Shown: positions 16,129 to 28,263, counted from the first letter of the stretch. The stretch: DNA of 64,000 nt from a marine group bacterium Sva0996 bin134 (GCA_002239105.1 MPNQ01000010.1:14638-78637); one strand, 5' to 3'. Notes: generated by a model not told the origin, from the sequence alone. Translations and numbers: made by a program.

Positions 16129-17295
16129 GTGGAGGCCCTTGTCTTCGAACGCAGTCCCGCCCGTTATGTGGCCGCCGCGGTTGCCTCTCGGGTGGTCCCC
16201 GGCGCGGGCGGTGGGATCGGCCCGCTGCGACTGCGAGATGTCGATCTTCCGGAGCTGCCTGGGCCGGAATGGCAGGCGATTCGACCTCGGCTGACCGGCA
16301 TATGCGGTTCCGACCTGGCCACGGTGGAGGGTCGTTCGTCCCGATATTTCGAGTCGCTGGTGTCATTCCCGTTCATCCCCGGCCACGAGGTTGTGGGGCT
16401 CAACGACGACGGACACCGACTGGCTCTCGAACCGGTTTTGGGACCGGCAGCCCGTGACGAACCGCTCCCCTTCCCCGATGCCGCCCCCGGAGACGGCGAT
16501 GACTACGGCTACTTGCTTGGGGGCACCATCGAAGACGGCATCCAAATCGGCTTCTGCTCCAGCACGGGCGGCGGTTGGGGCGAAAGCCTGGTCGCCCACC
16601 AGAGCCAGCTCCATCCGGTACCGGACCACTTCAGCGACGAGGCTGCCGTGATGCTGGAACCGGCGGCCGGGGGAGTCCATGCCGCCCTGAAGGCCCAGGT
16701 AGAGCCGGGAGCATCGGTGGCCGTGCTGGGAGCGGGCACGATGGGGCTGTGTTCGCTGGCCGCGTTGCGATCGCACACCTCGGCCGGGACGATCATCGCT
16801 ACCGCCAAGTACCCCCACCAGCGAGATCTGGCCACCGCCTTGGGCGCCGACATCGTGGTCGATCCCCGGGAGGCTCGCCGCGCCGTCCGCAGATTCTGCG
16901 GCTGTCGGATGCTGGGCGACTACCTGTCGGGCGGAGTGGACGTCACCATCGACGCCGTGGGAAGTCCGGCATCGGTGGCCGATGCCATCGCCATCACCCG
17001 CCCTAGGGGTCGAGTGGTGCTTCTGGGCATGCCCGAACCCGCCCGAATCGACCTGACCGGGCTATGGCATCGTGAGACGGAGTTGGTCGGCGCCTACACC
17101 TATGGAACCGAAACCCTGCCCGAAGGCCGCACTGCCAAGAGCTTCGAAATGGCATTCGACCTGGTGGCCTCGGCCAACCTCGAGTGTTTGGTGTCCGCTC
17201 GCTACCCCTTGAGCCAATATCGGGAAGCCATCGCCCACGCCGCTGAAGCTGGCTCCCGCGGCGCCATCAAGGTGGTCTTCGAGCAGAACGGCTGA
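16129..17295 (+). CDS. zinc-dependent alcohol/threonine dehydrogenase family oxidoreductase
   Basis: GTG at 16129 (VEALVFE...). The track's 15898 start overlaps the M23 gene. GICGSDL, PGHEVVG, and AVLGAGTMGL Rossmann motif. Confidence 0.8.
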   Translation: MEALVFERSPARYVAAAVASRVVPGAGGGIGPLRLRDVDLPELPGPEWQAIRPRLTGICGSDLATVEGRSSRYFESLVSFPFIPGHEVVGLNDDGHRLALEPVLGPAARDEPLPFPDAAPGDGDDYGYLLGGTIEDGIQIGFCSSTGGGWGESLVAHQSQLHPVPDHFSDEAAVMLEPAAGGVHAALKAQVEPGASVAVLGAGTMGLCSLAALRSHTSAGTIIATAKYPHQRDLATALGADIVVDPREARRAVRRFCGCRMLGDYLSGGVDVTIDAVGSPASVADAIAITRPRGRVVLLGMPEPARIDLTGLWHRETELVGAYTYGTETLPEGRTAKSFEMAFDLVASANLECLVSARYPLSQYREAIAHAAEAGSRGAIKVVFEQNG

Positions 17296-17311
17296 TCCCC
17301 AGCGGCTACCC

Positions 17312-18376
17312 CTAAGCCAGCGGGGAAAGGCCGAAGTCGGCCCCGATGGCACTGATCTCTTCCACTAGGGCAACGGGCAGGGGAATGCCCGAAGCCAGCC
17401 GCTCAGCTCGGTTCTCGTGCTCGATCTCGCCGGGCACATAGATCCGATCCACTCCCTCGGCCCGCTCGTTGCTATGCACATCCCGGATGAGCTGGTCCAT
17501 CTGCTCCCGAAATGTCTCCACCCCGCAGAACCGCTCCAGGTCGAGGGTCAGGAACATCCAACCCTTGGCCAGTCGGCGGTTGCCGACCAACTCGCATTCG
17601 GTCTGCTCGGTGTGGCCGAAACTGCTACCAGCCACTATCCCCGACAACACCTCCACCAACAGTGCAATCCCAAAGCCCTTGTATCCGCCGAACCAGCACA
17701 GATTCTGGGCTGATGCCGTTTCGGTATCGGTGGTCGGCCGACCATGGACGTCGTTGGCCCAGCCTTCGGGGATAGTCGGATCACCTCGTTTTTTGGCCAG
17801 CAAGATCTTGTTGCCCGCCACCGCGGTGGTGGCGATGTCGTACACCACCGGCAGCTCTTCGCCCGCGGGTACCGCCCAGGAGAAGGGGTTCGTCGAGAAG
17901 ATCCCCGACCGGCCGCCGTAGGGGGGAACGATGGCCGGTCCATTCTGCACTGCCATGGCGAAGCAACCGGCTTCGGCTGCCGGCAGCGTGTAGTAGGCCA
18001 ACGCCCCCAGATGGGTTCCCTCTCGCACGGTGACGGCCGCCACCCCGTGGGCTTTGGCCCGCTCGACGGCCAACTCCATTGCCCTCACACCGGCAACCTG
18101 TCCAAAGCCGACGCCCCCGTCGAGCATCACTGTGGCGCCGTCGTCGCGGATCACCGTCACTTCGGTGACCGGCCGCAGGTGTCCTGATCTCAGTCGAGCC
18201 ACATACAGCTCCACCAGGTGGGCCCCGTGGGAGTCCACCCCGCGGAGGTCGGCCTCCACCAGGTTGTCGACCACGATCTCGGCTTGATCCAGAGGGACGC
18301 CCAGCCCCTCCAAAATGGCGATCTCGTAGCGTCGAAGGTCTTGATGATCCAGCAGGACCACGCTCGGGTCGACCAC
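17312..18376 (-). CDS. Ldh_2 family (malate/L-lactate/ureidoglycolate-type) dehydrogenase
   Basis: 354 aa. DLRGVDSHGAHLV..Y, FGQVAG, and NPFSWAVP are typical Ldh_2 motifs. Confidence 0.8.
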   Translation of the reverse strand: MVDPSVVLLDHQDLRRYEIAILEGLGVPLDQAEIVVDNLVEADLRGVDSHGAHLVELYVARLRSGHLRPVTEVTVIRDDGATVMLDGGVGFGQVAGVRAMELAVERAKAHGVAAVTVREGTHLGALAYYTLPAAEAGCFAMAVQNGPAIVPPYGGRSGIFSTNPFSWAVPAGEELPVVYDIATTAVAGNKILLAKKRGDPTIPEGWANDVHGRPTTDTETASAQNLCWFGGYKGFGIALLVEVLSGIVAGSSFGHTEQTECELVGNRRLAKGWMFLTLDLERFCGVETFREQMDQLIRDVHSNERAEGVDRIYVPGEIEHENRAERLASGIPLPVALVEEISAIGADFGLSPLA

Positions 18377-18379
18377 TGC

Positions 18380-18913
18380 TCAGGCAGTCTCTTCGGACTT
18401 CGGGGGCCGATAGAACAATGTGAGCTGGGCCAATCCGGCCAGCACGCCGCCCCCAGCGCCAATAGCCAATCCGATGTACCCATCCAAGTCATCATCGATG
18501 CCCAAAGCGCTGTCCACCGACCACTCCATGGGCCCCAGGGTGGCAACTGAAGCCGCCACCACGGCCAGCACAAAGGTGTACTCCCATCCTTCTCGAACGA
18601 TCATGAAGCCGTTGTGGCGGTGAACGGTCCACGCCGCCACCACCATGACGCCCACCATCCCGGCAGCCGCCAGCGGGGTAAACAGACCCAGGGCAAACAG
18701 CAATCCAGCGCTGATCTCCGTGAGCGCGGCCATCCAGGCGTGTAACTTGCCCGGCTTCATTCCCATGCTGTCGAACCAACCAGCGGTACCGGGAATGCGA
18801 CCGCCCTGAAAGATCTTGCCGTACCCATGAGCGGCAAACGTGAGGCCGATGCCCACCCGCAGGATCAGCATTGCCAAATTCATCTCATCCATAGGCCCAC
18901 AGTACTGGCCCAT
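18380..18913 (-). CDS. DoxX family membrane protein
   Basis: LRVGIGLTFAAHGYGKIF...GWFDSMGMKPGKL and four hydrophobic helices. Confidence 0.75.
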   Translation of the reverse strand: MGQYCGPMDEMNLAMLILRVGIGLTFAAHGYGKIFQGGRIPGTAGWFDSMGMKPGKLHAWMAALTEISAGLLFALGLFTPLAAAGMVGVMVVAAWTVHRHNGFMIVREGWEYTFVLAVVAASVATLGPMEWSVDSALGIDDDLDGYIGLAIGAGGGVLAGLAQLTLFYRPPKSEETA

Positions 18914-18926
18914 CTAGGCTGAACAG

Positions 18927-19184
18927 GTGCCTCTATGGCTCAGCGTTCTTGTCGCCATCCTCGCGGGGATGATTCTCATCCGGGTCGGCATTGGAGTATT
19001 GCTGATGATCCGCCAGCCTCTGCCGCCGCCGCCACCGCCGGGTGAACTGCGCAAAGTGAAGATCACCTACCGGTGCACGCTTTGCTATGCCGAGGTTCGC
19101 ATGACCGTCGCCCCGGAAGAAGACCCCGACCCTCCGCGTCACTGCGGCGACGAGATGGACCTGGTCGCGCCGATCGACGAGTAG
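18927..19184 (+). CDS. small membrane protein with C-terminal zinc-ribbon-like CxxC...HC motif (hypothetical)
   Basis: GTG start. One TM helix, a poly-Pro stretch, then YRCTLCYAEV...PPRHCGDEM. No family recognised. Confidence 0.35.
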   Translation: MPLWLSVLVAILAGMILIRVGIGVLLMIRQPLPPPPPPGELRKVKITYRCTLCYAEVRMTVAPEEDPDPPRHCGDEMDLVAPIDE

Positions 19185-19268
19185 AGCAAGTTATCCACAG
19201 GCTGTGTAGAAAACTGGGCACAAACTACAAGGCCGTAACTAGAACGTAACGAGACCCCAGCAGGTTGG

Positions 19269-19544
19269 CTAATGCCACTGGGTGGCTACCAGCATCCCGG
19301 CCAGCAGCAGACCCAGGCCGCCCATCAGGTACCAGTTGTTGGTGTCCCCCGGCAGCAGCGCAACGTAGTTGAGCACGATCACAATGGCCCCCAGAGCCAA
19401 CAGGGCGATCATCAGCACTGGCACCCAGATTGGGCTGACCTTCTCAGCAGTGACCGGCACCCGGGGGGTGGCTTCGTTCTCGGGTCGGGTGCCCCTCGGG
19501 GTAACCCGGCCGCCCTGCACTCTGCGCTTGGTTGGCTTGGCCAT
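19269..19544 (-). CDS. crgA: cell division protein CrgA
   Basis: ATG at 19544 gives 91 aa: a basic N-terminus (MAKPTKRRVQGGRVTPRG) and two TM helices ending ...LLLAGMLVATQWH. Conserved position next to trpG-pknB. Confidence 0.75.
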   Translation of the reverse strand: MAKPTKRRVQGGRVTPRGTRPENEATPRVPVTAEKVSPIWVPVLMIALLALGAIVIVLNYVALLPGDTNNWYLMGGLGLLLAGMLVATQWH

Positions 19545-19611
19545 GCGGCAAGGATAGACCCGATGCAATCCGCTTCTAGCCTTGAGTGGCCTCCCGATAA
19601 CGTTGAACCCG

Positions 19612-20193
19612 GTGAGTTCCCGCATTCTGGTGATCGACAACTACGACTCTTTCGTCTACAACCTTGTTCAGTACTTGGGCGAACTGGGCGCCGAGCCGAT
19701 CGTTCATCGCCACGATGCCATCTCCCTCGATGAGGCCGTCGGCCTCGATCCCGACGGCGTTCTCATCAGCCCTGGACCCGGTCGTCCATCTGATGCCGGA
19801 CTGAGCAATGCACTCATTCAGGAGTTCTGCGGCGTTCGGCCGGTGCTCGGCGTATGCCTTGGCTTGCAGTGCCTCGGCGAGGTTTTCGGGGGCCAAGTTG
19901 TTCGAGCCCCGCATGTCATGCACGGCAAGACATCGATCATCCACCACACCGGCGACGGGGTCTTCGCTGGACTCCCCAACCCCATCGAGGCCACTCGGTA
20001 CCACTCTTTGATCGTGGAGCGCTCCTCAGTGCCCGATGTCTTGGACATAACTGCGGAGACCGACGATGGGCTTGTGATGGGCTTGCGCCACCGCGATCAC
20101 CCAGTAGAGGGAGTGCAGTTCCATCCGGAGTCGATCCTGACCTCCACCGGCCACGACATGTTGAGTAATTTTCTGGCTCAGACTGCCTTGTAA
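19612..20193 (+). CDS. trpG: glutamine amidotransferase component II of anthranilate / aminodeoxychorismate synthase
   Basis: [29 protein letters not shown] nucleophile-Cys motif, [11 protein letters not shown] 19612 is preferred over the track's TTG at 19582. Confidence 0.85.
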
Positions 20194-20203
20194 CCGCGAG
20201 AAA

Positions 20204-22591
20204 TCATCTGGTCCAGGAAACGGCGCAACCATCGTCGACCCCTGGGATGTCTCCATCTATGCCTTCTTCCCAATTCATGGCATTCGCGGCCGCGGCCGGC
20301 ATGGGGTACGGGGGTTCCAAGTTCCACTCCGCGGTGAATCCAGGAATGTCGGAGTAGGTCGTCGCTAGGCCTCGGCACTCTGATTCGAATCTCGCCGACA
20401 GGGCATTCCAATTGGCGATGCTTCCCAAAGCACCTGGTTGATTTGCCGCGGCAATGGATCTTGCGTTCAGCTGTACGGCCGTACTCCTCGCCAGGGTCCT
20501 ACGGGGAGTGAGGGCGTCGTCTGGTTCGTCGGGGGTGTCTGGATCGTCGGGGGTGCCCGTGGAGACAGGCTCCCCGGTGACCTCCGGCGGAACAGGCCCT
20601 ACTGGCCGACCCAGACAGGCGGTTACCTCTGTTTCCCGCGGGTGCTCCTCGTCGGCAAGCGGTGTCTGGTCCATGATGCGACCGACCAGTTCTTCGGTGT
20701 CATTGGGGATTTCACAGTCGGGAATGGGTTGGATCAGCACCAGTTCCAACTCCGTCAACCGCTCAGCGGCGGTGTCCGGGGTCAGCCCGATCAGGCTGGG
20801 CACCACCACGTTCTCCGGACCCGTGGATATCAGGATCACAATTGGGGAATCGGGCAGCAACAAGACGGGGGGCGCCGGATCGGTGCTGATCACCAGACCC
20901 TCCTCCACTTCGTCGGAAGGCTCCTCAACTACTTCGTCGCTCACCTCCAGACCGGCTTGGGCCAATATCTGGGTGGCTCGCAGCAAGGTCATCCCCATGA
21001 CATCGGGCACCTCTATGGCTTGAATCCCCTCGGCCACAAAGAGCACCACCGAGGTGCCCGGAGCAACCTCAGTTTGGGCCGCAGGATCTTGGCGAAGCAC
21101 CTGTCCTGCCGGCGCAGTAGAGCCCTCCACCACTTGCAGCTCGGAGGGGAACCCCCGGTCCTGCAAGAAGCGGACCGCATCGCTGGCGTCTTGGCCCACC
21201 ACTGGGGGCACGGGCACCGGAGCCACCCCCGAGCTCACCGTGATCTCGATCTCCCCACCCGACTCCGCTTCGGACAGCGCGGCCGGGGATTGGGAGATCA
21301 CCTCATTGCTGGCCACCGTGTCACTGGGTTCGAACACTGGGATCACCACGAAACCCTCCCCCCGAAGTTCGCGGGTCGCCATTTGGATCGACCGGCCCAC
21401 CACATCGGGCACCGTCACCAGGGCCGCTGGTGCGCTGGTCGCCACCGGTGGCGGGGCATCTTCGCCGTTGTCAAGCACGTTGGACAGCACGAAGAACACC
21501 AACACGGCCACGGCGATGAATATCACCGCCGCCGCCGTGTACAGCCCGGCCCGTGACGAGGGTTCCAAGACCGCCACCGGTGCGGGTTGGGGGGCCACTG
21601 GTGCGGGCTGCGGCGTGACCGGAGGCTGGGGTGGAGGGGCGGCTTGCGGTGGGGTGTCGTGTGGCGCCCTGGTCGGCTGCTCCGGCTCAACCGCCGGTGG
21701 GGGGGAAGCCGTCGACTGAGCTTCAGCCGCCTTTTGTCGAGGGGATAATTGATGGCGCCCCTCGCGAAAGCGCCGCAAATCCCGCTGGAGATCGTTGGCG
21801 GTCGGGTATCGCTTTGCCGGGTCTTTGGCCAGCAACTTATTGGTGATGGCCTCAAGCGATTCCGGCAGCACGATCCCCAACGATGATGGGGAGGGCACGG
21901 CCTGCTGGACATGCTTGTAGGCCACCGCCACCGAACTGTCGCCGGTGAACGGAGGGCGACCGCAGAGCATCTCGTACAGCACGATTCCCAGCGAATAAAG
22001 ATCACTGCGGTGATCTAACGGCTGTCCCTGGGCTTGCTCCGGTGAGAAGTAGGTGGCTGTTCCCATTACCGAGCCGGTCTGGGTGAGGTTCGACTCCGCA
22101 CCCCCGAACGCGGCAATGGCGATGCCGAAATCGGTTACCTTCACCTTTCCGTCGGGCGACAACAGCACATTGCCCGGCTTCACATCTCGGTGGATCACTC
22201 CGTTGTTGTGGGCAAACCCCAAAGCGGCGGCCACGTACATGGCAATCTCCGCGGCCCGCTCAGGGGGCAGGGGACCGTTCGAGCGCAGCAGTTCGGCCAA
22301 GCTCCGGCCCTCTATGTATTCCATGACGATGAAATACGTGCCCTCGTCCGATCCCCAGTCATACACCGCCACGATGTTGGGGTGATTGAGATTGGCGGCC
22401 GCGGTGGCTTCCCGCCGAAACCGCTCCACAAAGCTCGGGTCAGCGGCAAACTCCGGGAACAACCGCTTAATGGCTACCGGGCGCGACAAGAGGGTGTCCT
22501 GACCTAGGAACACGTCGGTCATACCGCCGCGAGCGATCTGATTTCGCAGTCGGTATCTACCGCCCAAAAGCTCCGGATCGTGGTCTGACAT
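20204..22591 (-). CDS. pknB: transmembrane Ser/Thr protein kinase with four PASTA repeats and an extra Cys-containing C-terminal domain
   Basis: Hanks kinase motifs (VAIK, HRDVKPGN, DFGIA, SPEQ). A Pro-rich linker with a PQPAPVA x2 repeat, one TM helix, four PASTA-like repeats (V.VPDV.G...), then about 130 unassigned aa. Confidence 0.9.
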   Translation of the reverse strand: MSDHDPELLGGRYRLRNQIARGGMTDVFLGQDTLLSRPVAIKRLFPEFAADPSFVERFRREATAAANLNHPNIVAVYDWGSDEGTYFIVMEYIEGRSLAELLRSNGPLPPERAAEIAMYVAAALGFAHNNGVIHRDVKPGNVLLSPDGKVKVTDFGIAIAAFGGAESNLTQTGSVMGTATYFSPEQAQGQPLDHRSDLYSLGIVLYEMLCGRPPFTGDSSVAVAYKHVQQAVPSPSSLGIVLPESLEAITNKLLAKDPAKRYPTANDLQRDLRRFREGRHQLSPRQKAAEAQSTASPPPAVEPEQPTRAPHDTPPQAAPPPQPPVTPQPAPVAPQPAPVAVLEPSSRAGLYTAAAVIFIAVAVLVFFVLSNVLDNGEDAPPPVATSAPAALVTVPDVVGRSIQMATRELRGEGFVVIPVFEPSDTVASNEVISQSPAALSEAESGGEIEITVSSGVAPVPVPPVVGQDASDAVRFLQDRGFPSELQVVEGSTAPAGQVLRQDPAAQTEVAPGTSVVLFVAEGIQAIEVPDVMGMTLLRATQILAQAGLEVSDEVVEEPSDEVEEGLVISTDPAPPVLLLPDSPIVILISTGPENVVVPSLIGLTPDTAAERLTELELVLIQPIPDCEIPNDTEELVGRIMDQTPLADEEHPRETEVTACLGRPVGPVPPEVTGEPVSTGTPDDPDTPDEPDDALTPRRTLARSTAVQLNARSIAAANQPGALGSIANWNALSARFESECRGLATTYSDIPGFTAEWNLEPPYPMPAAAANAMNWEEGIDGDIPGVDDGCAVSWTR

Positions 22592-22624: not shown

Positions 22625-23422
22625 TTATGGGAGGGCTACGTCGGTCACATCGACGACTACGACCGTCACGTTGTCGCTTCCGCCGTTCTTCAAGGCGAGC
22701 CTCACCAGGGCATCGGCGGCCTCCGACGGCGACTCGGATTGACCCATGATCGCGTGGATGTCCCGGTCGTCCACCTCGTTGGTCAAACCATCAGAGCAGA
22801 GCAGATAGCGATGCCCGCTCACCGGCACCAGAGTCCAGTCGTCAACCACCACTGTTGACTCGATGCCCAGCGCTCGGCTCAGGCGATGCCGAAGTTCGTG
22901 AAAGCCGGCCTCCTGTCGGGTGATCATCCCGGCCTTCACCATCTCATGCACCACAGTGTGGTCTTCAGTCAGTTGGTGAAGGCCGCTCTCGTCGCAGCGG
23001 TACACCCGGGAGTCCCCGACATTGACCACGGCCAGCGCTTCGTCGTGGTCGTCTTCGACCACGGCCAGCGCACACAACGTTGTCCCCATGCCCGCCAAAT
23101 CAGCGATGGAGTTGGACTGGGAAAAGATCTCCGCATTCGCCCGGTCCACCGCATCCAACAACTCCCCCACCGTAGGAGCCGGAGAATCTGATGAGCGGCG
23201 GCCGAACAGATTGCGACGCCGGCCTTCGCTACGGGCTTCAACCGCGGCTTTGATTTCAGCAGCCAGCGTCTCCACTGCAATTGCCGACGCCACCTCCCCT
23301 CCCCGGTGCCCACCTAGCCCGTCGGCGACCGCGAAGAGTTCACCTTCAACCAGCATCGAATCTTCGTTTTTCTCTCGACGTCGGCCTCGATCGGTGGCTT
23401 GTCCCGTTTCCAGCCGGATCAT
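22625..23422 (-). CDS. pstP: PP2C-family Ser/Thr phosphatase (soluble, no TM segment)
   Basis: ATDRGRRREKNEDS, FAVADGLGGHRGGEVAS, LLCSDGL, and DNVTVVVVD are PP2C motifs. Immediately upstream of pknB on the same strand. Confidence 0.9.
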   Translation of the reverse strand: MIRLETGQATDRGRRREKNEDSMLVEGELFAVADGLGGHRGGEVASAIAVETLAAEIKAAVEARSEGRRRNLFGRRSSDSPAPTVGELLDAVDRANAEIFSQSNSIADLAGMGTTLCALAVVEDDHDEALAVVNVGDSRVYRCDESGLHQLTEDHTVVHEMVKAGMITRQEAGFHELRHRLSRALGIESTVVVDDWTLVPVSGHRYLLCSDGLTNEVDDRDIHAIMGQSESPSEAADALVRLALKNGGSDNVTVVVVDVTDVALP

Positions 23423-23574
23423 CAGAGTTCCATTACCGTGGTGCCCCCACTTTGCGGTGGACTATAACCAGCGCTCATCCCGATTGGCAGTCGGTTACAT
23501 GAGAATCTGGATCGTGTCGATACTCAGTTATTGATCTGATCACCCGTCTTGTACGCTTTCCACCCCGACAATCA

Positions 23575-23658
<84 letters not shown>

Positions 23659-23667
23659 CATCGTTGA

Positions 23668-24171
23668 TCAGCCCACCGTCCCCGTGGGGGTGGGGGTGGG
23701 AACCTCGGTCACCGGGATGACCGGGGGCGGGCCCCAGGCAATGGCGGCTTTGGAGAAACCCGCGGCCATGGCCACGGTGAGGGCCAACTCGGCCAACTCG
23801 GCCGGGGTGAACTCCTCGCTCAGCGCCTCCTGATCTGCCCCGGTGAGCCCCGATGGGTCGGAGATCACCGCATCGGCCATCCGCAGAGCCAGCTTGAACC
23901 GCTCGGGCAATTCGCTGTCGGTATAGCCATCGTCGATCTGATCTACCAGTTCTTCAGTGAGCCCCTGCTGCTTCGCACCTGCGAAGCGGAGGTTCTTTCA
24001 AATGTTGCAATCGTTGACTCGGGCATTGCGGAGCCGGCCCACCTCCTTGGTGGCCTGGTCGAGCTGTCCTTCGCTCCACAGCGTGCCGTAGAAGCGGTTG
24101 AACACAGCGAACAGCTCAGGCTGGTGGTCGAACAGCGACATTCCCCCTTCGGGGATGGCGATTCTGGTCAT
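23668..24171 (-). CDS. AhpD-like / carboxymuconolactone decarboxylase family selenoprotein (codon 58 UGA read as selenocysteine; motif C-N-I-U)
   Basis: ATG at 24171 with AAAGGAG 7 nt upstream. The single in-frame TGA (24000-23998) falls at the second Cys position of the family CxxC. The frame stays open for a further 109 codons, and a SECIS-like hairpin follows. The track shows it as two ORFs (23998..24285 and 23668..23910). Confidence 0.75.
23962..23992 (-). promoter_or_regulatory. bacterial SECIS-like stem-loop downstream of the in-frame UGA
   Basis: mRNA reads UGA AAGAA CCUCC GCUUCGC AGGU GCGAAGC AGCA GGGG. This gives a 7-bp upper stem, an AGGU apical loop with G and U at +23/+24 from the UGA, a 4-nt bulge, and a 4-bp lower stem. 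Confidence 0.65.
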
Positions 24172-24545
24172 GGGATGACTCCTTTCAACGCGGCCCGACT
24201 GCGAGCCAGGGCCTCGAACGTGGCGATGGCCGTGGTGAGGGCGGCCAACTCGGGGGGCGATAACCAGGCGTTCATCTCGGCGCACAGCTCATCGGTCACC
24301 CCATGGGCATCAAGAACGTACTGCTCGGTAAACGCCAGCACGACCCTCTCCCGGTCGTCTTGGGGGTTCCGGGCCGGCGGCCCCCCACCGACCATTTGCT
24401 CGACGCGAGCCGCACACAGCTCCAGCAAGGCGGCATTCAACCCCGTTCCATCGAGGGCCTGCACCAACTCATCCAGCGGCCCGGCAACATGGGAGTCCAA
24501 TGCCGCCAGCGGATTGTCGGTCGAAGAAATGTCCATCGGGGTCAT
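24168..24545 (-). CDS. AhpD-like / CMD-fold protein lacking the CxxC motif
   Basis: ATG at 24545 overlaps the MBL stop (ATGA), and its own stop overlaps the selenoprotein ATG (ATGA). LLELCAARVEQM...FTEQYVLDAHGVTDE...LSPPELAALTTAIATFEAL resembles CMD-family helices. Confidence 0.55.
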   Translation of the reverse strand: MTPMDISSTDNPLAALDSHVAGPLDELVQALDGTGLNAALLELCAARVEQMVGGGPPARNPQDDRERVVLAFTEQYVLDAHGVTDELCAEMNAWLSPPELAALTTAIATFEALARSRAALKGVIP

Positions 24546-25258
24546 CCGCCGAACATGGACAGCCACTGCTCAGCTGAGCGGGGCATGAACACATAGTTGG
24601 TACGACGGGTATCGCCCATAGAAGCCGATGGCTGGGGTGAGTACAGATGGCCCGGGTAGAGCGTGGCGCTGTCTGGTACCCGGGCCAAACGCTGGGTGAG
24701 GCTCTCGTACATCGCCGCGGGATCGCTCCCTGGCAGATCGGTTCGCCCGCAACCCTCCAAGAAAAGCGTGTCGCCGGCCACCAGTCGCCCGTTGGTCAAA
24801 AAGCACTGGCTGCCCGGAGTGTGCCCCGGAGTGTGGATCATCTCGATGTCCACTGCCCCCACCGAAAGCACATCGCCGCTGGTATGCAAGCACAGATCGT
24901 CGTCTTCCAGCCCGGTGGTCATGCTGACATAGCGAGCCTCATCAGCCTGGACGTGTACCGGAACCGACACCAGCTCCAACAGTTCGGCAACGCCGGTGAT
25001 GGAGAACTGCATCATCGACCCGCCCACATGATCGGGGTGGTAATGGGTGGCCAACACCCCGGTAAGCCGCATCCCATCAGCCTCTACCAGCGCCACAATC
25101 CCCTCCGGGTCATAAGCCGGGTCCACCACCACCGCTTCCCCCGTCTCCCGATCCCCAATCAAGTAAACGAAGTTCACCATCTGCCGGGCCATCATGTCCC
25201 CGGCCGCAATATCCCGCCCCGACAACAGCTGTCGAAAATAAAGCCGCTCGTCCTCCAC
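24542..25258 (-). CDS. MBL-fold metallo-hydrolase (glyoxalase II / persulfide-dioxygenase-like)
   Basis: GTG start. VNFVYLIGD, THYHPDHVGG (HxHxDH), HTPGHTPGS, and GDTLF..GCGRTDLPG. Confidence 0.85.
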   Translation of the reverse strand: MEDERLYFRQLLSGRDIAAGDMMARQMVNFVYLIGDRETGEAVVVDPAYDPEGIVALVEADGMRLTGVLATHYHPDHVGGSMMQFSITGVAELLELVSVPVHVQADEARYVSMTTGLEDDDLCLHTSGDVLSVGAVDIEMIHTPGHTPGSQCFLTNGRLVAGDTLFLEGCGRTDLPGSDPAAMYESLTQRLARVPDSATLYPGHLYSPQPSASMGDTRRTNYVFMPRSAEQWLSMFGG

Positions 25259-25268
25259 GGGCTAGATA

Positions 25269-26456
25269 CTACGCAACCGGCTCGTCATCGCCTTTGCGGC
25301 GCCATGCCTCTTCCGCCAACGACACCACTTCGCGGGCCGGCAGCCCTAGCAGCTTCGACGCCCGCACGGCCTCGTCGTGTTCGACTTTCACCCGACCAGC
25401 ACCAACTTTCACGCGGATCCGCCTCCCGTCCACATCAACTTCTTGTTCGAACCGCGACCGAGGCCACCGTTCGATCAACTGCCCTCGCACGCCCAGCGAA
25501 CCGGTCTCGTCAGCCAGCGTGGCTGCTACTTGATCGCCCACCGCGGGATCGGCCAATGCGCTCACCGTGTACGCCGGCCGTCCCTTCTTCATGACAATCG
25601 GCGTGATCCAGGCGTCGTGGGCTCCCGCATTCAAGAGCGCGGCCACGCTATGAGCCAGCGTCTCTCCAGTGGCGTCGTCAACGTTGGTCTCGAAGAGCAT
25701 CACGGGCTGGCCCTCGGGGCGAGCCGCCGCCATTGTGCCCACCACCACCTGGGTGAGGTTGGGGCGGTCTTCCAGCTGGTTCTCACCGGCGCCGAATCCG
25801 GCGGCCGAGATGGTCATGGGCGGCATGGGGCCCCACCCCGCGGCCAACGCCGACAAGATCGCCGCGCCGGTCGGCGTGGTCAGCTCCAACCCCACATCCA
25901 ACCCAAACGTCGGACACCCCACCAACAGTTCAACCACCGCGGGCGGCGGGTTGGGCAGCCGCCCGTGCGCGCTGCGAATCATCCCCCGTCCACACGCCAC
26001 CGCACTGGAGTGGACTTCGTCGATTCCCAGCACCTCCAGCGCGGCGCACGTGCCCACCACGTCGATGATGGCGTCCAGCCCGCCGACCTCATGAAAGTGG
26101 ACCTGCTCGGGCGGCCGGCGATGCAACTTGCCCTCGGCTCGCGACAGGGCGTCGAACACCGCCAAGGCCCTGTCGGCCACGCGGTCGGGCAGCCGAGCCT
26201 CCCCGATGAGCGCGTTGATATGACTGGCCGTGCGCACCACCGAAGTCTCCCGGGTGATCACCCTCACGTCGGTGGCGGCAATGCCTCCCCGCTGGGTGGG
26301 ATGGGCTTGAAGATCCCACCCTCCCAATGGCAGCAGCTCGCAAATCTCCCGCACTTCAACCACATCGGCTCCGGCGTCGATCAGCGCCCCCAGCGCCATG
26401 TCGCCGGCGATCCCGCTAAAGCAGTGAAACCAGGCAATGCGCGCCGGCTCAGCCAT
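25269..26456 (-). CDS. larC: nickel-pincer cofactor biosynthesis protein LarC (DUF111 family)
   Basis: IAWFHCFSGIAGDMALGALIDAGAD... N-terminal signature, FHEVGGLDAIIDVVG, 395 aa. Confidence 0.85.
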   Translation of the reverse strand: MAEPARIAWFHCFSGIAGDMALGALIDAGADVVEVREICELLPLGGWDLQAHPTQRGGIAATDVRVITRETSVVRTASHINALIGEARLPDRVADRALAVFDALSRAEGKLHRRPPEQVHFHEVGGLDAIIDVVGTCAALEVLGIDEVHSSAVACGRGMIRSAHGRLPNPPPAVVELLVGCPTFGLDVGLELTTPTGAAILSALAAGWGPMPPMTISAAGFGAGENQLEDRPNLTQVVVGTMAAARPEGQPVMLFETNVDDATGETLAHSVAALLNAGAHDAWITPIVMKKGRPAYTVSALADPAVGDQVAATLADETGSLGVRGQLIERWPRSRFEQEVDVDGRRIRVKVGAGRVKVEHDEAVRASKLLGLPAREVVSLAEEAWRRKGDDEPVA

Positions 26457-27234
26457 CGCTTGCTCCGCTCATCTCCGCCTCCGATGCCGCCCGGTCTCTC
26501 GACTTGAACAATCGCAGCACCGCGCAGGCTGCGCCGAAGCCATTGTCCACCCCCACCACGGTCACCCCCGCAGCACACGACGACAACATGGCCAAGAGCG
26601 GGGTGACCCCCTCAAGGGATGACCCGTAACCTGTGCTGGTGGGCACCGCCACCACTGGGGCCGCGGTCAGCCCGCCCACCACCGAGGCCAGCGCTCCTTC
26701 CATACCGGCTACCACCACAACGGCGTCGGCTGATGCCAACTCCTCGACGTCACCGAGAATCCGGTGAAGCCCGGCCACCCCCACATCGTTCAACCTCCGC
26801 GGCGCCAGTCCGTGAGCGGCCAGCACTACCCCGCATTCGTCGGCCACCGGGAGATCAGCCGTTCCCGCAGCGGCCAGAACCACCCGCTCTGGTCGTGGCG
26901 GCGCCGGGCGCCAGACAACGGTGGTGTCGTAGTGCTCCCCCTCGGGATTGAGGGCCAAGGCGGCCGCGGCCTGCTCGGCGGAAGCCCTTGTCAACATCAC
27001 TGGACCGCCCGGCTGATCCAACAGCTCCCTCACGATGGCCGCGCACTGGTGAGCCGTCTTGCCCGGGCCGTAGACAACCTCGGCCAACCCCTGGCGCAGG
27101 CTGCGATGGTGGTCCACCCGGGCAAAGCCCAAATCGGCGAACGGTAGTCGCCTCAATTGCCTCACTGCGTCGTCCGGCGACACCGTGCCGTCGCGTACAT
27201 CGGCCATCAATTGCCGAAAAAAGGCTTCATCCAC
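26449..27234 (-). CDS. larB: nickel-pincer cofactor biosynthesis protein LarB (PurE-like NaAD carboxylase/hydrolase)
   Basis: DLGFARVDHHR, AAAGTADLPVADE, VVAGMEGALASVVGGL, and PTSTGYG are LarB-type PurE-fold motifs. 8-nt overlap with larC. Confidence 0.85.
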   Translation of the reverse strand: MDEAFFRQLMADVRDGTVSPDDAVRQLRRLPFADLGFARVDHHRSLRQGLAEVVYGPGKTAHQCAAIVRELLDQPGGPVMLTRASAEQAAAALALNPEGEHYDTTVVWRPAPPRPERVVLAAAGTADLPVADECGVVLAAHGLAPRRLNDVGVAGLHRILGDVEELASADAVVVVAGMEGALASVVGGLTAAPVVAVPTSTGYGSSLEGVTPLLAMLSSCAAGVTVVGVDNGFGAACAVLRLFKSRDRAASEAEMSGASDG

Positions 27235-27315
27235 CTCAACATCCCGCCTTCTCCAAAGGTTCTTGTAATTTTCTCACACCGGCCCTGAATCCCAATACCA
27301 CTATCCTGCCCCCTT

Positions 27316-28263
27316 GTGACCGCCTCTGCCCGATCTGTGCGTCAAGTGGCCTACCTGGGACCTCCGGGCACGTTCACCGAAGAAGCGCTTCTCACCCAAC
27401 CCGATTTGGCTGTGGCCGACCACCTCTTGTGCCGGTCGATCCCCGACGTTCTTGGAGCTGCCGCCGACGGCCGGGCCGATTTGGGCTTCACCGCCATCGA
27501 GAACTCCATCGAGGGGACGGTCAACGTGGCCCTCGACGCATTGATCTTCGAACACGATCTGCTCATCCAGCGGGAAGTGGTCATCGACGTTCGCCTCCAC
27601 CTGCTGGGCTTCTCTGGTACTTCGCTGGACAAGATTCGCCGGGTGATCAGCTTCCCCGTGGCAACTGCCCAATGCCGGCGCTACCTGACCGAGAATCTGC
27701 CCCATGCGGAGGAGATCGCCGCCAACTCCACTGCCGCGGCGGCCCGCGATCTCGCCGTCTCCAAAGACGAAACCACTGTGGCCATCGGCACCGCCCTGTC
27801 GCAGGAGATCTACGGACTGGACATGATCGCCACCGATATCGAAGATCACCCGGAGAACCAAACCCGCTTCGTGGGAGTGTCCCGTTCCGGCGTGCCCGCC
27901 CCGACCGGAAACGACAAGACATCCATCGTCGTATTCCAACATGCCGACCGCTCGGGCTCGCTCATGGGCATTCTCGCTGAGTTTGCAGCCCGCTCCATAA
28001 ACCTGACCAAGCTGGAGTCTCGCCCCACCAAAAAGGCGCTGGGTGACTACTGCTTCCTCATTGATCTCGAGGGCCATGTGGCCGACCAGTTGGTGGCCGA
28101 CTGCCTCACCAGCATCATGGCCAAGCACGGCTCCGTGAAGTTTCTCGGCTCTTACCCCACCAACATCAGGGGTAACGAAGAGCACGGCAACGCGGCCACC
28201 ACCGCATGGACCGATGCCCAGAACTGGATCGAAGGCCTGCGCGGCCAAGTCGACGATCCCTGA
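27316..28263 (+). CDS. pheA: prephenate dehydratase
   Basis: VAYLGPPGTFTEEA, PIENSIEGTV-like (AIENSIEGTV), TRF, and the ACT domain ESRPTKKALGDYCFLIDLEGH. Confidence 0.9.
   Translation: MTASARSVRQVAYLGPPGTFTEEALLTQPDLAVADHLLCRSIPDVLGAAADGRADLGFTAIENSIEGTVNVALDALIFEHDLLIQREVVIDVRLHLLGFSGTSLDKIRRVISFPVATAQCRRYLTENLPHAEEIAANSTAAAARDLAVSKDETTVAIGTALSQEIYGLDMIATDIEDHPENQTRFVGVSRSGVPAPTGNDKTSIVVFQHADRSGSLMGILAEFAARSINLTKLESRPTKKALGDYCFLIDLEGHVADQLVADCLTSIMAKHGSVKFLGSYPTNIRGNEEHGNAATTAWTDAQNWIEGLRGQVDDP

Follow-up and report, generated by a model that had tools for sequence, protein, structure and literature searches.

Nickel-pincer cofactor genes, an MBL-fold enzyme gene and an AhpD-like pair with a predicted selenoprotein probably form a lineage-specific composite operon in a member of the Acidimicrobiales

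The window, that is, the whole stretch of DNA that was analysed (64,000 nt), holds on its minus strand five genes arranged head to tail: larB, larC, a gene for an MBL-fold enzyme (hereafter MBL), a gene for an AhpD-like protein without CxxC (AhpD1), and a gene for a predicted AhpD-like selenoprotein with a CxxU motif (AhpDU). With a probability of about 0.8, three modules that are independent in function, all of them from known gene families, make up this cluster as a composite operon specific to the lineage. The first module, larB-larC, would serve the synthesis of the nickel-pincer cofactor (NPN); the second, MBL, may carry out thiol persulfide or thioester chemistry independently of NPN; and the third, AhpD1-AhpDU, would be a CMD-fold redox pair formed by a CxxC-less partner and a catalytic CxxC subunit, which here is CxxU. 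The original prediction had offered mere operon hitch-hiking as one of three explanations, and this is the one supported by the restriction of the gene order to one genus and by the independent variation of the modules. The features of the locus are as follows:

26449..27234 (-): larB, 261 aa, pyridinium-3,5-biscarboxylic acid mononucleotide synthase; heads the unit
25269..26456 (-): larC, CTP-dependent nickel insertase in which LarC1 and LarC2 are fused, 395 aa
24542..25258 (-): MBL-fold enzyme, 238 aa, GTG start, predicted to be ETHE1/persulfide-dioxygenase-like
24168..24545 (-): AhpD1, 125 aa, CMD/AhpD-fold partner without CxxC
23668..24171 (-): AhpDU, 167 aa, predicted CMD-family selenoprotein, CNIU replacing CxxC
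23998..24000 (-): in-frame TGA probably read as selenocysteine, within the AhpDU gene
23968..23989 (-): SECIS-like hairpin, stem GCUUCGC/GCGAAGC, loop AGGU, beginning ~11 nt past the UGA
23575..23659 (+): tRNA-Leu(CAG), detected by ARAGORN; convergent; end of the unit and of the variable slot that holds the AhpD pair
27235..27315 (no strand): larB/pheA divergent spacer, 81 bp; presumed promoter region, judging from the gene arrangement
27316..28263 (+): pheA (prephenate dehydratase), PF00800, 178 bits; conserved syntenic anchor

The packed co-directional cluster described in the original prediction was reproduced in its coordinates and junctions: larB and larC overlap by 8 nt, a gap of 10 nt separates larC from MBL, and ATGA (4-nt) overlaps join MBL to AhpD1 and AhpD1 to AhpDU. 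We infer that the five genes are probably transcribed together from the 81-bp spacer between pheA and larB, and the overlaps probably couple their translation. A consensus scan detected neither a promoter in this spacer nor a terminator-like site between the five genes, and it returned two weak sigma-70-like matches inside the unit (25235-25208 and 24188-24161). These matches are what would favour the existence of internal promoters that split the cluster into separate units (e.g., larBC, MBL, and the AhpD pair) instead of a single transcript. Nevertheless, they overlap coding sequence or span a start codon and thus cannot drive a full downstream gene, and the tight junctions and the lack of terminator-like sites between the genes also make separate transcripts very unlikely. 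Because overlaps couple the five genes in the genus, their co-expression there is almost certain. Such co-expression could still have physiological meaning.

Both lar genes of the cluster encode proteins of well-defined families. LarB passes the NF033503 equivalog model (230.7 bits, with a cut-off of 175) and matches PF00731 (PurE-like fold, 41 bits), while LarC matches PF01969 (390 bits) and holds both of its domains above their cut-offs (TIGR00299 for LarC1, 186.8 versus 90 bits; NF052512 for LarC2, 106.5 versus 50 bits). Neither larE nor larA is encoded within the 64,000-nt window, as had been noted, and both were located on other contigs of the genome, in which every lar gene is present as a single copy. 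The gene larE is found on contig C25 (TIGR00268, 301 bits), and its product has the SGGVDS and CYWC motifs plus a distal Cys. The LarA homologue, on contig C74, is a client of the LarAH14/15/16 family (NF052592, 903.5 bits versus a cut-off of 740). With a LarE and a LarA-family client also encoded, this is the known pathway, complete in this genome yet dispersed over three contigs. The original prediction had named a canonical larA-larB-larC-larE cluster elsewhere as an argument against a link; this applies only in part, since the missing genes do exist but lie on separate contigs.

Compared with the lar system of Lactiplantibacillus plantarum (LarA, LarB, LarC1/C2, and LarE), the likeness lies in LarB and LarC, which pass the curated equivalog models. 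In contrast, no single lar operon is formed here, LarC is one fused protein, and the client belongs to a family other than lactate racemase. LarE also differs, because it bears the CXXC-C [4Fe-4S] motif that characterizes the T. maritima type, as opposed to the sacrificial Cys176 type (PMC9283937). Judging from this motif, the host LarE would not be of the sacrificial type and should need no repair, and a repair arm for a sacrificial LarE was rejected for this reason.

The product of the third gene matches PF00753 (76.7 bits) and reaches none of the NCBIfam equivalog cut-offs. Its assignment to GloB (TIGR03413) was rejected, as it scores 98.3 bits against an equivalog cut-off of 200.8, and the score with NF040641, the sole related NCBIfam equivalog, is 59.8 bits against 625. 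The best matches in sequence and fold are ETHE1-type persulfide dioxygenases (human ETHE1, 4chl; M. xanthus, 4ysb; BpPRF, 5ve3; and the CstB-like 3r2u) together with glyoxalase II/YcbL. The nearest solved sequences include 4ysb and 4chl, and most of the top 22 matches in a Foldseek search are persulfide dioxygenases (TM ~0.65). MBL has in common with these enzymes the MBL fold, the GCGRTD loop, and a set of ligands (HxHxDH, H, D, H) that does not vary; however, it is only 22-32% identical to solved structures, holds no rhodanese domain, and remains below every curated equivalog model. All 81 MBL orthologues compared keep residues H72, H74, D76, H77, H146, D163, and H204, and the protein is 66-97% identical across the Acidimicrobiales. 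On the basis of homology, MBL is thus predicted to be an ETHE1/persulfide-dioxygenase-like enzyme, highly conserved throughout the order.

The neighbourhood was compared across some 150 related genomes, whose loci were resolved by tblastn anchoring and targeted ORF extraction; longest-ORF and GC3-based callers are error-prone on these mixed-GC loci. Among 80 MBL-anchored loci, larC is located directly 5' of MBL in 33, with gaps of 14-186 nt, and upstream but 1.7-3.9 kb away in another 10. The gene pheA, which is divergent from larB, or from MBL where larBC is missing, abuts MBL in 17 loci without larBC, and neither larC nor pheA is found 5' of MBL in 13 loci. Altogether, 43 of the 77 informative loci, which belong to several families of the order, have larC 5' of MBL, either adjacent to it or close by. 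In other settings, so frequent an adjacency would be taken as a sign that the two neighbours are linked in function. The six larC-MBL inserts that were examined consist of unrelated genes, mostly on the opposite strand (fatty-acid desaturase, PaaX, PanE, P450, and uridine kinase).

The separate fates of larBC and MBL can be observed directly in the relatives. No LarC is encoded anywhere in 19 of the 21 genomes with pheA but not larC upstream of MBL, complete chromosomes included, although in metagenome-assembled genomes such an absence can partly reflect incompleteness; all 19 retain MBL at ~70% identity. Conversely, 13 of the 14 genomes in which MBL stands alone carry larC elsewhere. These are soil genomes in which MBL lies megabases from larBC, and in every one of the 13 larB-larC stays divergent from pheA without MBL. 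In the MBL tree, the context switches at least 13 times, and larBC has been lost at least 4-5 times. The proposed survey of larC neighbourhoods in other Actinomycetota pointed in the same direction: in most of the 30 loci, larC is flanked by larE, larB or both, and none of them (0/30) has an MBL homologue within 1.5 kb of larC.

The AhpD genes are joined to larC-MBL in only 13 of the 80 loci, all from the genus clade, and MBL lacks the pair in the other 67. In other lineages, the gene 3' of MBL is variable (Zn-ADH, FAD reductase, PNPOx, YkuD, or GGDEF). No close AhpDU orthologue was found in 34 Acidimicrobiales genomes from outside the genus, including the sister lineage L052, in which tRNA-Leu is found 30 nt past the MBL stop and the AhpD pair is missing. 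It is in the Ca. Poriferisocius-like clade alone that the pair separates MBL from tRNA-Leu. Because the genomes of this genus clade are 89-97% identical, conservation within it is weak evidence. The original prediction had stated that a neighbourhood not conserved in relatives, or genes that vary independently, would argue against a link. In fact, the five-gene order is confined to one genus-level clade, and larBC, MBL, and the AhpD pair vary separately. An order conserved across divergent relatives, accompanied by co-occurrence, which would define a coupled lar-MBL-AhpD cluster, was not observed.

AhpDU matches PF02627 (41.5 bits versus 23) and holds the motif DCNIU, in which CNIU aligns with the CxxC that is invariant in 12 Cys homologues (57-70% identity). 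The TGA, the downstream hairpin, and purifying selection downstream of the TGA are all kept in 12 of 12 related genomes, and a genome search of six relatives revealed one TGA inside each of their AhpDU orthologues. The hairpin (17 nt from the UGA to the loop), a stem-loop that the search for terminators flagged as well, folds in 13 genomes with energies of -12.9 to -24.2 kcal/mol and a conserved stem. The Sec machinery in the genome includes tRNA-Sec, selD, and the C-terminus of selB at a contig end, while a search of the assembly, which is 94% complete, gave no selA; that this reflects an assembly gap beside the truncated selB contig, and not a true absence, is an unproven reading. The nearest known systems are the CxxU AhpD-like selenoproteins of the Sargasso Sea and GOS selenoproteomes (PMC1088965, PMC2398784) and the NCBIfam YciW-related (seleno)protein. 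AhpDU and these families are alike in the CMD/AhpD fold, the Sec (predicted in AhpDU) in place of the second Cys of CxxC, and the marine source. In contrast, the AhpDU subfamily (~167 aa) has a Pro-rich WGPPP...PTPxPxGxV tail and is in every case accompanied by a smaller paralogue that lacks CxxC, and the scores of AhpDU with all named NCBIfam selenoprotein models stay well under their cut-offs.

This smaller partner, AhpD1, has no Pfam match. Its homology to the AhpDU family emerges from a profile-profile comparison with hhalign (96.9% probability, E 1.3e-10), and its AlphaFold model (pLDDT 87.6) has its best but weak matches in AhpD/PA0269 structures (TM 0.66-0.69; best Foldseek E 4.5e-3, with none at or below 1e-3). 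AhpD1 exhibits GGGP where CxxC would sit, and it is orthologous (35-43% identity) to the partner encoded upstream of AhpDU homologues elsewhere. The Cys homologues of AhpDU are present in Acidimicrobiia, Frankia, Acidobacteriota, and Deltaproteobacteria, and a small AhpD1-like partner precedes them in six of six assemblies, which represent four distinct and unrelated neighbourhoods (in L114 this partner was called as two short ORFs). Neither MBL nor lar genes lie near the pair in any of these six assemblies. As far as gene order can tell, AhpD1-AhpDU is a self-contained two-gene module, and we infer that the two proteins form a heteromer. The composition profile of the locus showed no anomaly that would signal horizontal transfer of the pair, which says nothing about recent transfer.

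In the Poriferisocius-like clade, MBL-AhpD1-AhpDU might act jointly in sulfur/selenium redox chemistry that has nothing to do with NPN, as a unit in which a selenol-thiol reductant would recycle the thiol substrate, or protect the metal site, of a persulfide dioxygenase/thioesterase. The ATGA overlaps, which are kept in most genus loci, the preservation of the arrangement in 13 of 13 genus-clade loci, and the thiol or chalcogen chemistry common to the three families are consistent with such a unit. However, the pair exists without MBL outside the genus, MBL exists without the pair in most loci, with no close AhpDU orthologue in the 34 of those genomes searched directly, unrelated genes fill the slot after MBL in other lineages, and the genus genomes are too similar for their shared order to weigh much, all of which makes this scheme unlikely.

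Alternatively, MBL might be an accessory, non-essential helper of NPN biosynthesis in the Acidimicrobiales, which would account for its frequent position behind larC. NPN contains two thiocarboxylates (PMC9283937), and the nearest solved relatives of MBL act on sulfane sulfur or thioesters; MBL might therefore control a persulfide/thiocarboxylate pool for LarE of the Fe-S type, or remove a side product that is a thioester or a thioacid. The frequency of the larC-MBL adjacency across the order and the short gaps in the 33 direct cases speak for this role. Against it stand the retention of MBL in genomes without LarC, its distance from larBC in the soil genomes, the opposite-strand genes in most inserts examined, the 30 larC loci of other Actinomycetota without MBL alongside, and the location of larE itself outside the cluster; this role is accordingly highly improbable. 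The slimmest chance of all is given to the version in which the tendency of MBL to follow larC reflects a real, dispensable role in NPN sulfur chemistry that is extended by the AhpD pair in Poriferisocius; if true, the Lar pathway would have a fourth arm, new to science, that handles chalcogens. Neither the new cofactor-dependent client nor the alternative chalcogen-handling or repair arm suggested initially is supported, given the MBL orthologues of the 19 genomes lacking larC and the LarE type indicated by its motif. Under the preferred reading, that of a composite operon, pheA/larB-larC-MBL would be an old Acidimicrobiales synteny block near the origin region, and the AhpD pair would have been inserted, in the Ca. 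Poriferisocius-like clade alone, into the variable slot that MBL and tRNA-Leu delimit.

The false lead is worth showing, as the mining of lar neighbours is currently productive. It has yielded a new NPN client, the AKR-type NphT (PMC13524815), where an NPAD-dependent ornithine cyclodeaminase is cited as another such client and where LarA and NphT bind NPN covalently (+450 Da). The original prediction followed the same reasoning, namely that a gene beside lar genes might use the cofactor. Contrary to NphT, MBL fails this test, since it persists without LarC and is absent beside larC outside one order; it would be an enzyme of the whole order that works without NPN and lies with larBC in an old synteny block. 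The analysis also gives three by-products of modest value: a clear case, among marine or sponge-associated Acidimicrobiales, of an NPN pathway that is complete yet dispersed, a deep synteny of pheA with larBC in Actinomycetota, and a conserved uncharacterised two-gene AhpD-like module whose putative catalytic subunit has probably changed from Cys to Sec in one lineage.

The five minus-strand genes are packed with overlaps or a small gap, as the original prediction had described and as the ORF listing and direct reading confirm:

27234-26449, minus strand: larB (NF033503, 230.7 bits; cut-off 175)
26456-25269, minus strand: larC (PF01969, 390 bits; TIGR00299, LarC1, 186.8 bits; NF052512, LarC2, 106.5 bits), overlapping larB by 8 nt
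25258-24542, minus strand: MBL-fold gene with a GTG start (PF00753, 76.7 bits), 10 nt after larC
24545-24168, minus strand: AhpD1, 125 aa, ATGA overlap with the MBL gene
24171-23668, minus strand: AhpDU, a 167-codon frame (PF02627, CMD/AhpD, 41.5 bits), ATGA overlap with AhpD1
27316-28263, plus strand: pheA, divergent, the upstream boundary, 81 bp from larB
23575-23659, plus strand: tRNA-Leu(CAG), convergent, the downstream boundary

A single transcript would be the likeliest arrangement, because the genes overlap and a consensus scan found no terminator between them and only two promoter-like matches in the cluster, both weak and lying within coding sequence or spanning a start codon. Beyond the tRNA-Leu gene, a sigma-70-like match (CTGCCA-18-TATAGT, 23461-23490, minus strand) upstream of a PP2C phosphatase gene (pstP-like, start at 23422) is plausibly the separate promoter of a pstP-pknB unit.

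Homologues of the MBL protein number in the thousands, the best of them (66-97% identity) coming from Acidimicrobiales, with Ca. Poriferisocius MAGs nearest. Among 80 MBL-anchored genome loci, fetched with their neighbours placed by tblastn, larC lies immediately 5' of the MBL gene in 33 and behind an insert of 1.7-3.9 kb in 10; pheA is immediately 5' in 17 loci devoid of larBC and more distant in four devoid of larC, 13 have neither gene upstream, and three are uninformative. The inserts examined (6/10) hold unrelated genes, mostly on the opposite strand (fatty-acid desaturase, PaaX-type regulator, ketopantoate reductase, P450, uridine kinase). A whole-genome LarC search of the 35 genomes without larC adjacent to MBL found none in 19 of the 21 with pheA and no larC 5' of MBL, complete chromosomes included. 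In 13 of the 14 genomes with MBL alone LarC is located elsewhere, and in all 13 larB-larC is divergent from pheA and lacks MBL; in one complete 5.56-Mb chromosome (genome G027), larC lies at 0.74 Mb and MBL at 4.3 Mb. A separate, canonical larE-larB-larC cluster, with a LarC identity of only 36-39%, occurs in two marine genomes. A maximum-likelihood tree of the MBL protein implies at least 13 context changes, with larBC lost at least 4-5 times and relocated at least 2-3 times.

LarC is present in 178 of 251 Actinomycetota genomes. The survey of actinobacterial larB-larC neighbourhoods yielded no MBL homologue within 1.5 kb of larC in the best 30 larC loci outside Acidimicrobiales (0/30), most of which are flanked by larE and/or larB and several of which adjoin pheA. 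The MBL gene is independent of larBC, and this survey of contexts shows that the conserved anchor is pheA synteny rather than a functional larC-MBL pair. The divergent pheA/larB-larC arrangement (window 27235-28263; loci L099-L112 and L126-L135) is conserved across Acidimicrobiales, and pheA beside larC also occurs in several other Actinomycetota families, a synteny far deeper than any MBL link, which may be meaningful or merely origin-proximal. Two loci with typical Acidimicrobiales synteny, L059 and L028, are titled as a 'Bifidobacterium breve' MAG and a 'Dehalococcoidia' MAG, and these contigs are probably mis-binned or mislabelled.

The MBL protein itself is predicted to act on its own, as a housekeeping-type enzyme of thiol persulfide or thioester chemistry. 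Across 81 orthologues its seven metal ligands (H72, H74, D76, H77, H146, D163, H204) and GCGRTD loop do not vary, and its nearest solved sequences include the ETHE1 persulfide dioxygenases of M. xanthus and human. The top 22 fold matches of its model (pLDDT 81.9) are mostly persulfide dioxygenases or PDO-rhodanese fusions, with glyoxalase II types ranking below; no curated equivalog was reached (GloB, 98 bits against 200.8). The gene 3' of it varies by lineage (Zn-ADH, ferredoxin-reductase-like, PNPOx-like, YkuD, GGDEF, acyltransferase). It is very improbable that larC and the MBL gene adjoin so often in Acidimicrobiales because of an accessory sulfur-handling role.

The AhpD pair is a module of its own. 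AhpD1, which had no match in a Pfam search and has GGGP at the CxxC position, is a CMD-fold paralogue all the same: its family aligns with that of AhpDU (hhalign, 96.9% probability, E 1.3e-10), and the structures closest to its AlphaFold model (pLDDT 87.6) are PA0269, P. aeruginosa AhpD and Atu0492 (TM 0.66-0.69), a weak fold match with a best Foldseek E of 4.5e-3. Cys (CxxC) homologues of AhpDU (57-70% identity) occur in Acidimicrobiia, Frankia, Acidobacteriota and Deltaproteobacteria. The six looked up come from four different gene settings (one Acidimicrobiia contig, Frankia and two near-identical pairs, the first metagenomic); in 6/6 a small gene (135-162 aa when intact) lies immediately 5', and in none is there an MBL or lar gene nearby. 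Three of these partners compared with AhpD1 are orthologues (35-43% identity, E 1e-15 to 1e-18). At locus L114 (4596-5004), on a metagenome contig, gene calling splits the partner into two short ORFs that overlap (91 + 52 aa); a frameshift, recoding or a misassembly could account for this. Among 40 Acidimicrobiales, close AhpDU orthologues are confined to the six genomes of the Poriferisocius-like clade, with the TGA in 6/6; the sister lineage (L052/G304) has none, and its tRNA-Leu gene begins 30 nt past the MBL stop. The pair was therefore added to a variable MBL-tRNA-Leu slot in this clade only. All AhpDU-family members end, outside the CMD domain, in a conserved proline-rich tail (WGPPPxxPVxxxPTPxPxGxV; window 23668-23730), which might mediate partner-subunit binding.

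AhpDU is probably a selenoprotein, as proposed, on sound sequence grounds. Its single in-frame TGA (24000-23998) places DCNIU at the position of the homologues' CxxC, and 12 related genomes keep the TGA at the same codon, the protein sequence 3' of it and the hairpin GCUUCGC-AGGU-GCGAAGC (UGA-to-loop, 17 nt). CxxU AhpD-like proteins are a long-known selenoprotein type, abundant in marine settings (PMC1088965, PMC2398784). The genome encodes tRNA-Sec (contig C45) and selD (C27:5504-6448, minus strand), which has one in-frame TGA, so that SelD is probably a selenoprotein as well. Of selB, the assembly contains only the C-terminal winged-helix domain (C77:4697-4816, minus strand), at the extreme end of a 5.2-kb contig, and selA was not found in the 94%-complete assembly, probably owing to an assembly gap covering the selAB region. 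More distant AhpD-like paralogues (30-45% identity) with one in-frame TGA each occur in other Acidimicrobiales (G293:C7:30297-30761, G297:C134:1872-2315, G299:C199:8870-9268, G006:C523:710-1051), which indicates Sec-containing AhpD-like proteins at several unrelated loci of the order.

The larE and larA homologues sought elsewhere in the genome were located. larE (TIGR00268, 301 bits) lies on contig C25, where its neighbours encode an ammonium transporter and a permease. The sole LarA homologue (537 aa), on contig C74, matches PF09861 and the 'LarAH14/15/16 family' (NF052592, 903.5 bits; cut-off 740) and probably consumes the NPN made by the window's larBC; the genes on either side of it encode a 770-aa fatty-acyl reductase/HAD fusion and a 300-aa PlsC-type acyltransferase, and the region (C74, about 16716-21530; locus L008 4716-9530) resembles an ether-lipid-like operon. 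Every lar gene is single copy, and with larE and the LarA homologue thus placed the NPN pathway is complete though dispersed; the canonical larA-larB-larC-larE cluster envisaged elsewhere is borne out in gene content but not in clustering. LarE carries SGGVDS, and its CYWC with a distal Cys forms the CXXC-C motif, which in T. maritima LarE binds a [4Fe-4S] cluster and functions catalytically (PMC9283937). Judged by this motif, the enzyme would not be of the sacrificial kind, which leaves the idea of a repair arm without rationale.

Most of the refutation tests attached to the original prediction come out against its fixed larBC-MBL-AhpD link. Its hitch-hiking reading fits, as the modules vary independently and the AhpD pair lies beside the MBL gene only in the Poriferisocius-like clade. 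Genes of three known kinds have here come to lie side by side in a lineage-specific arrangement.
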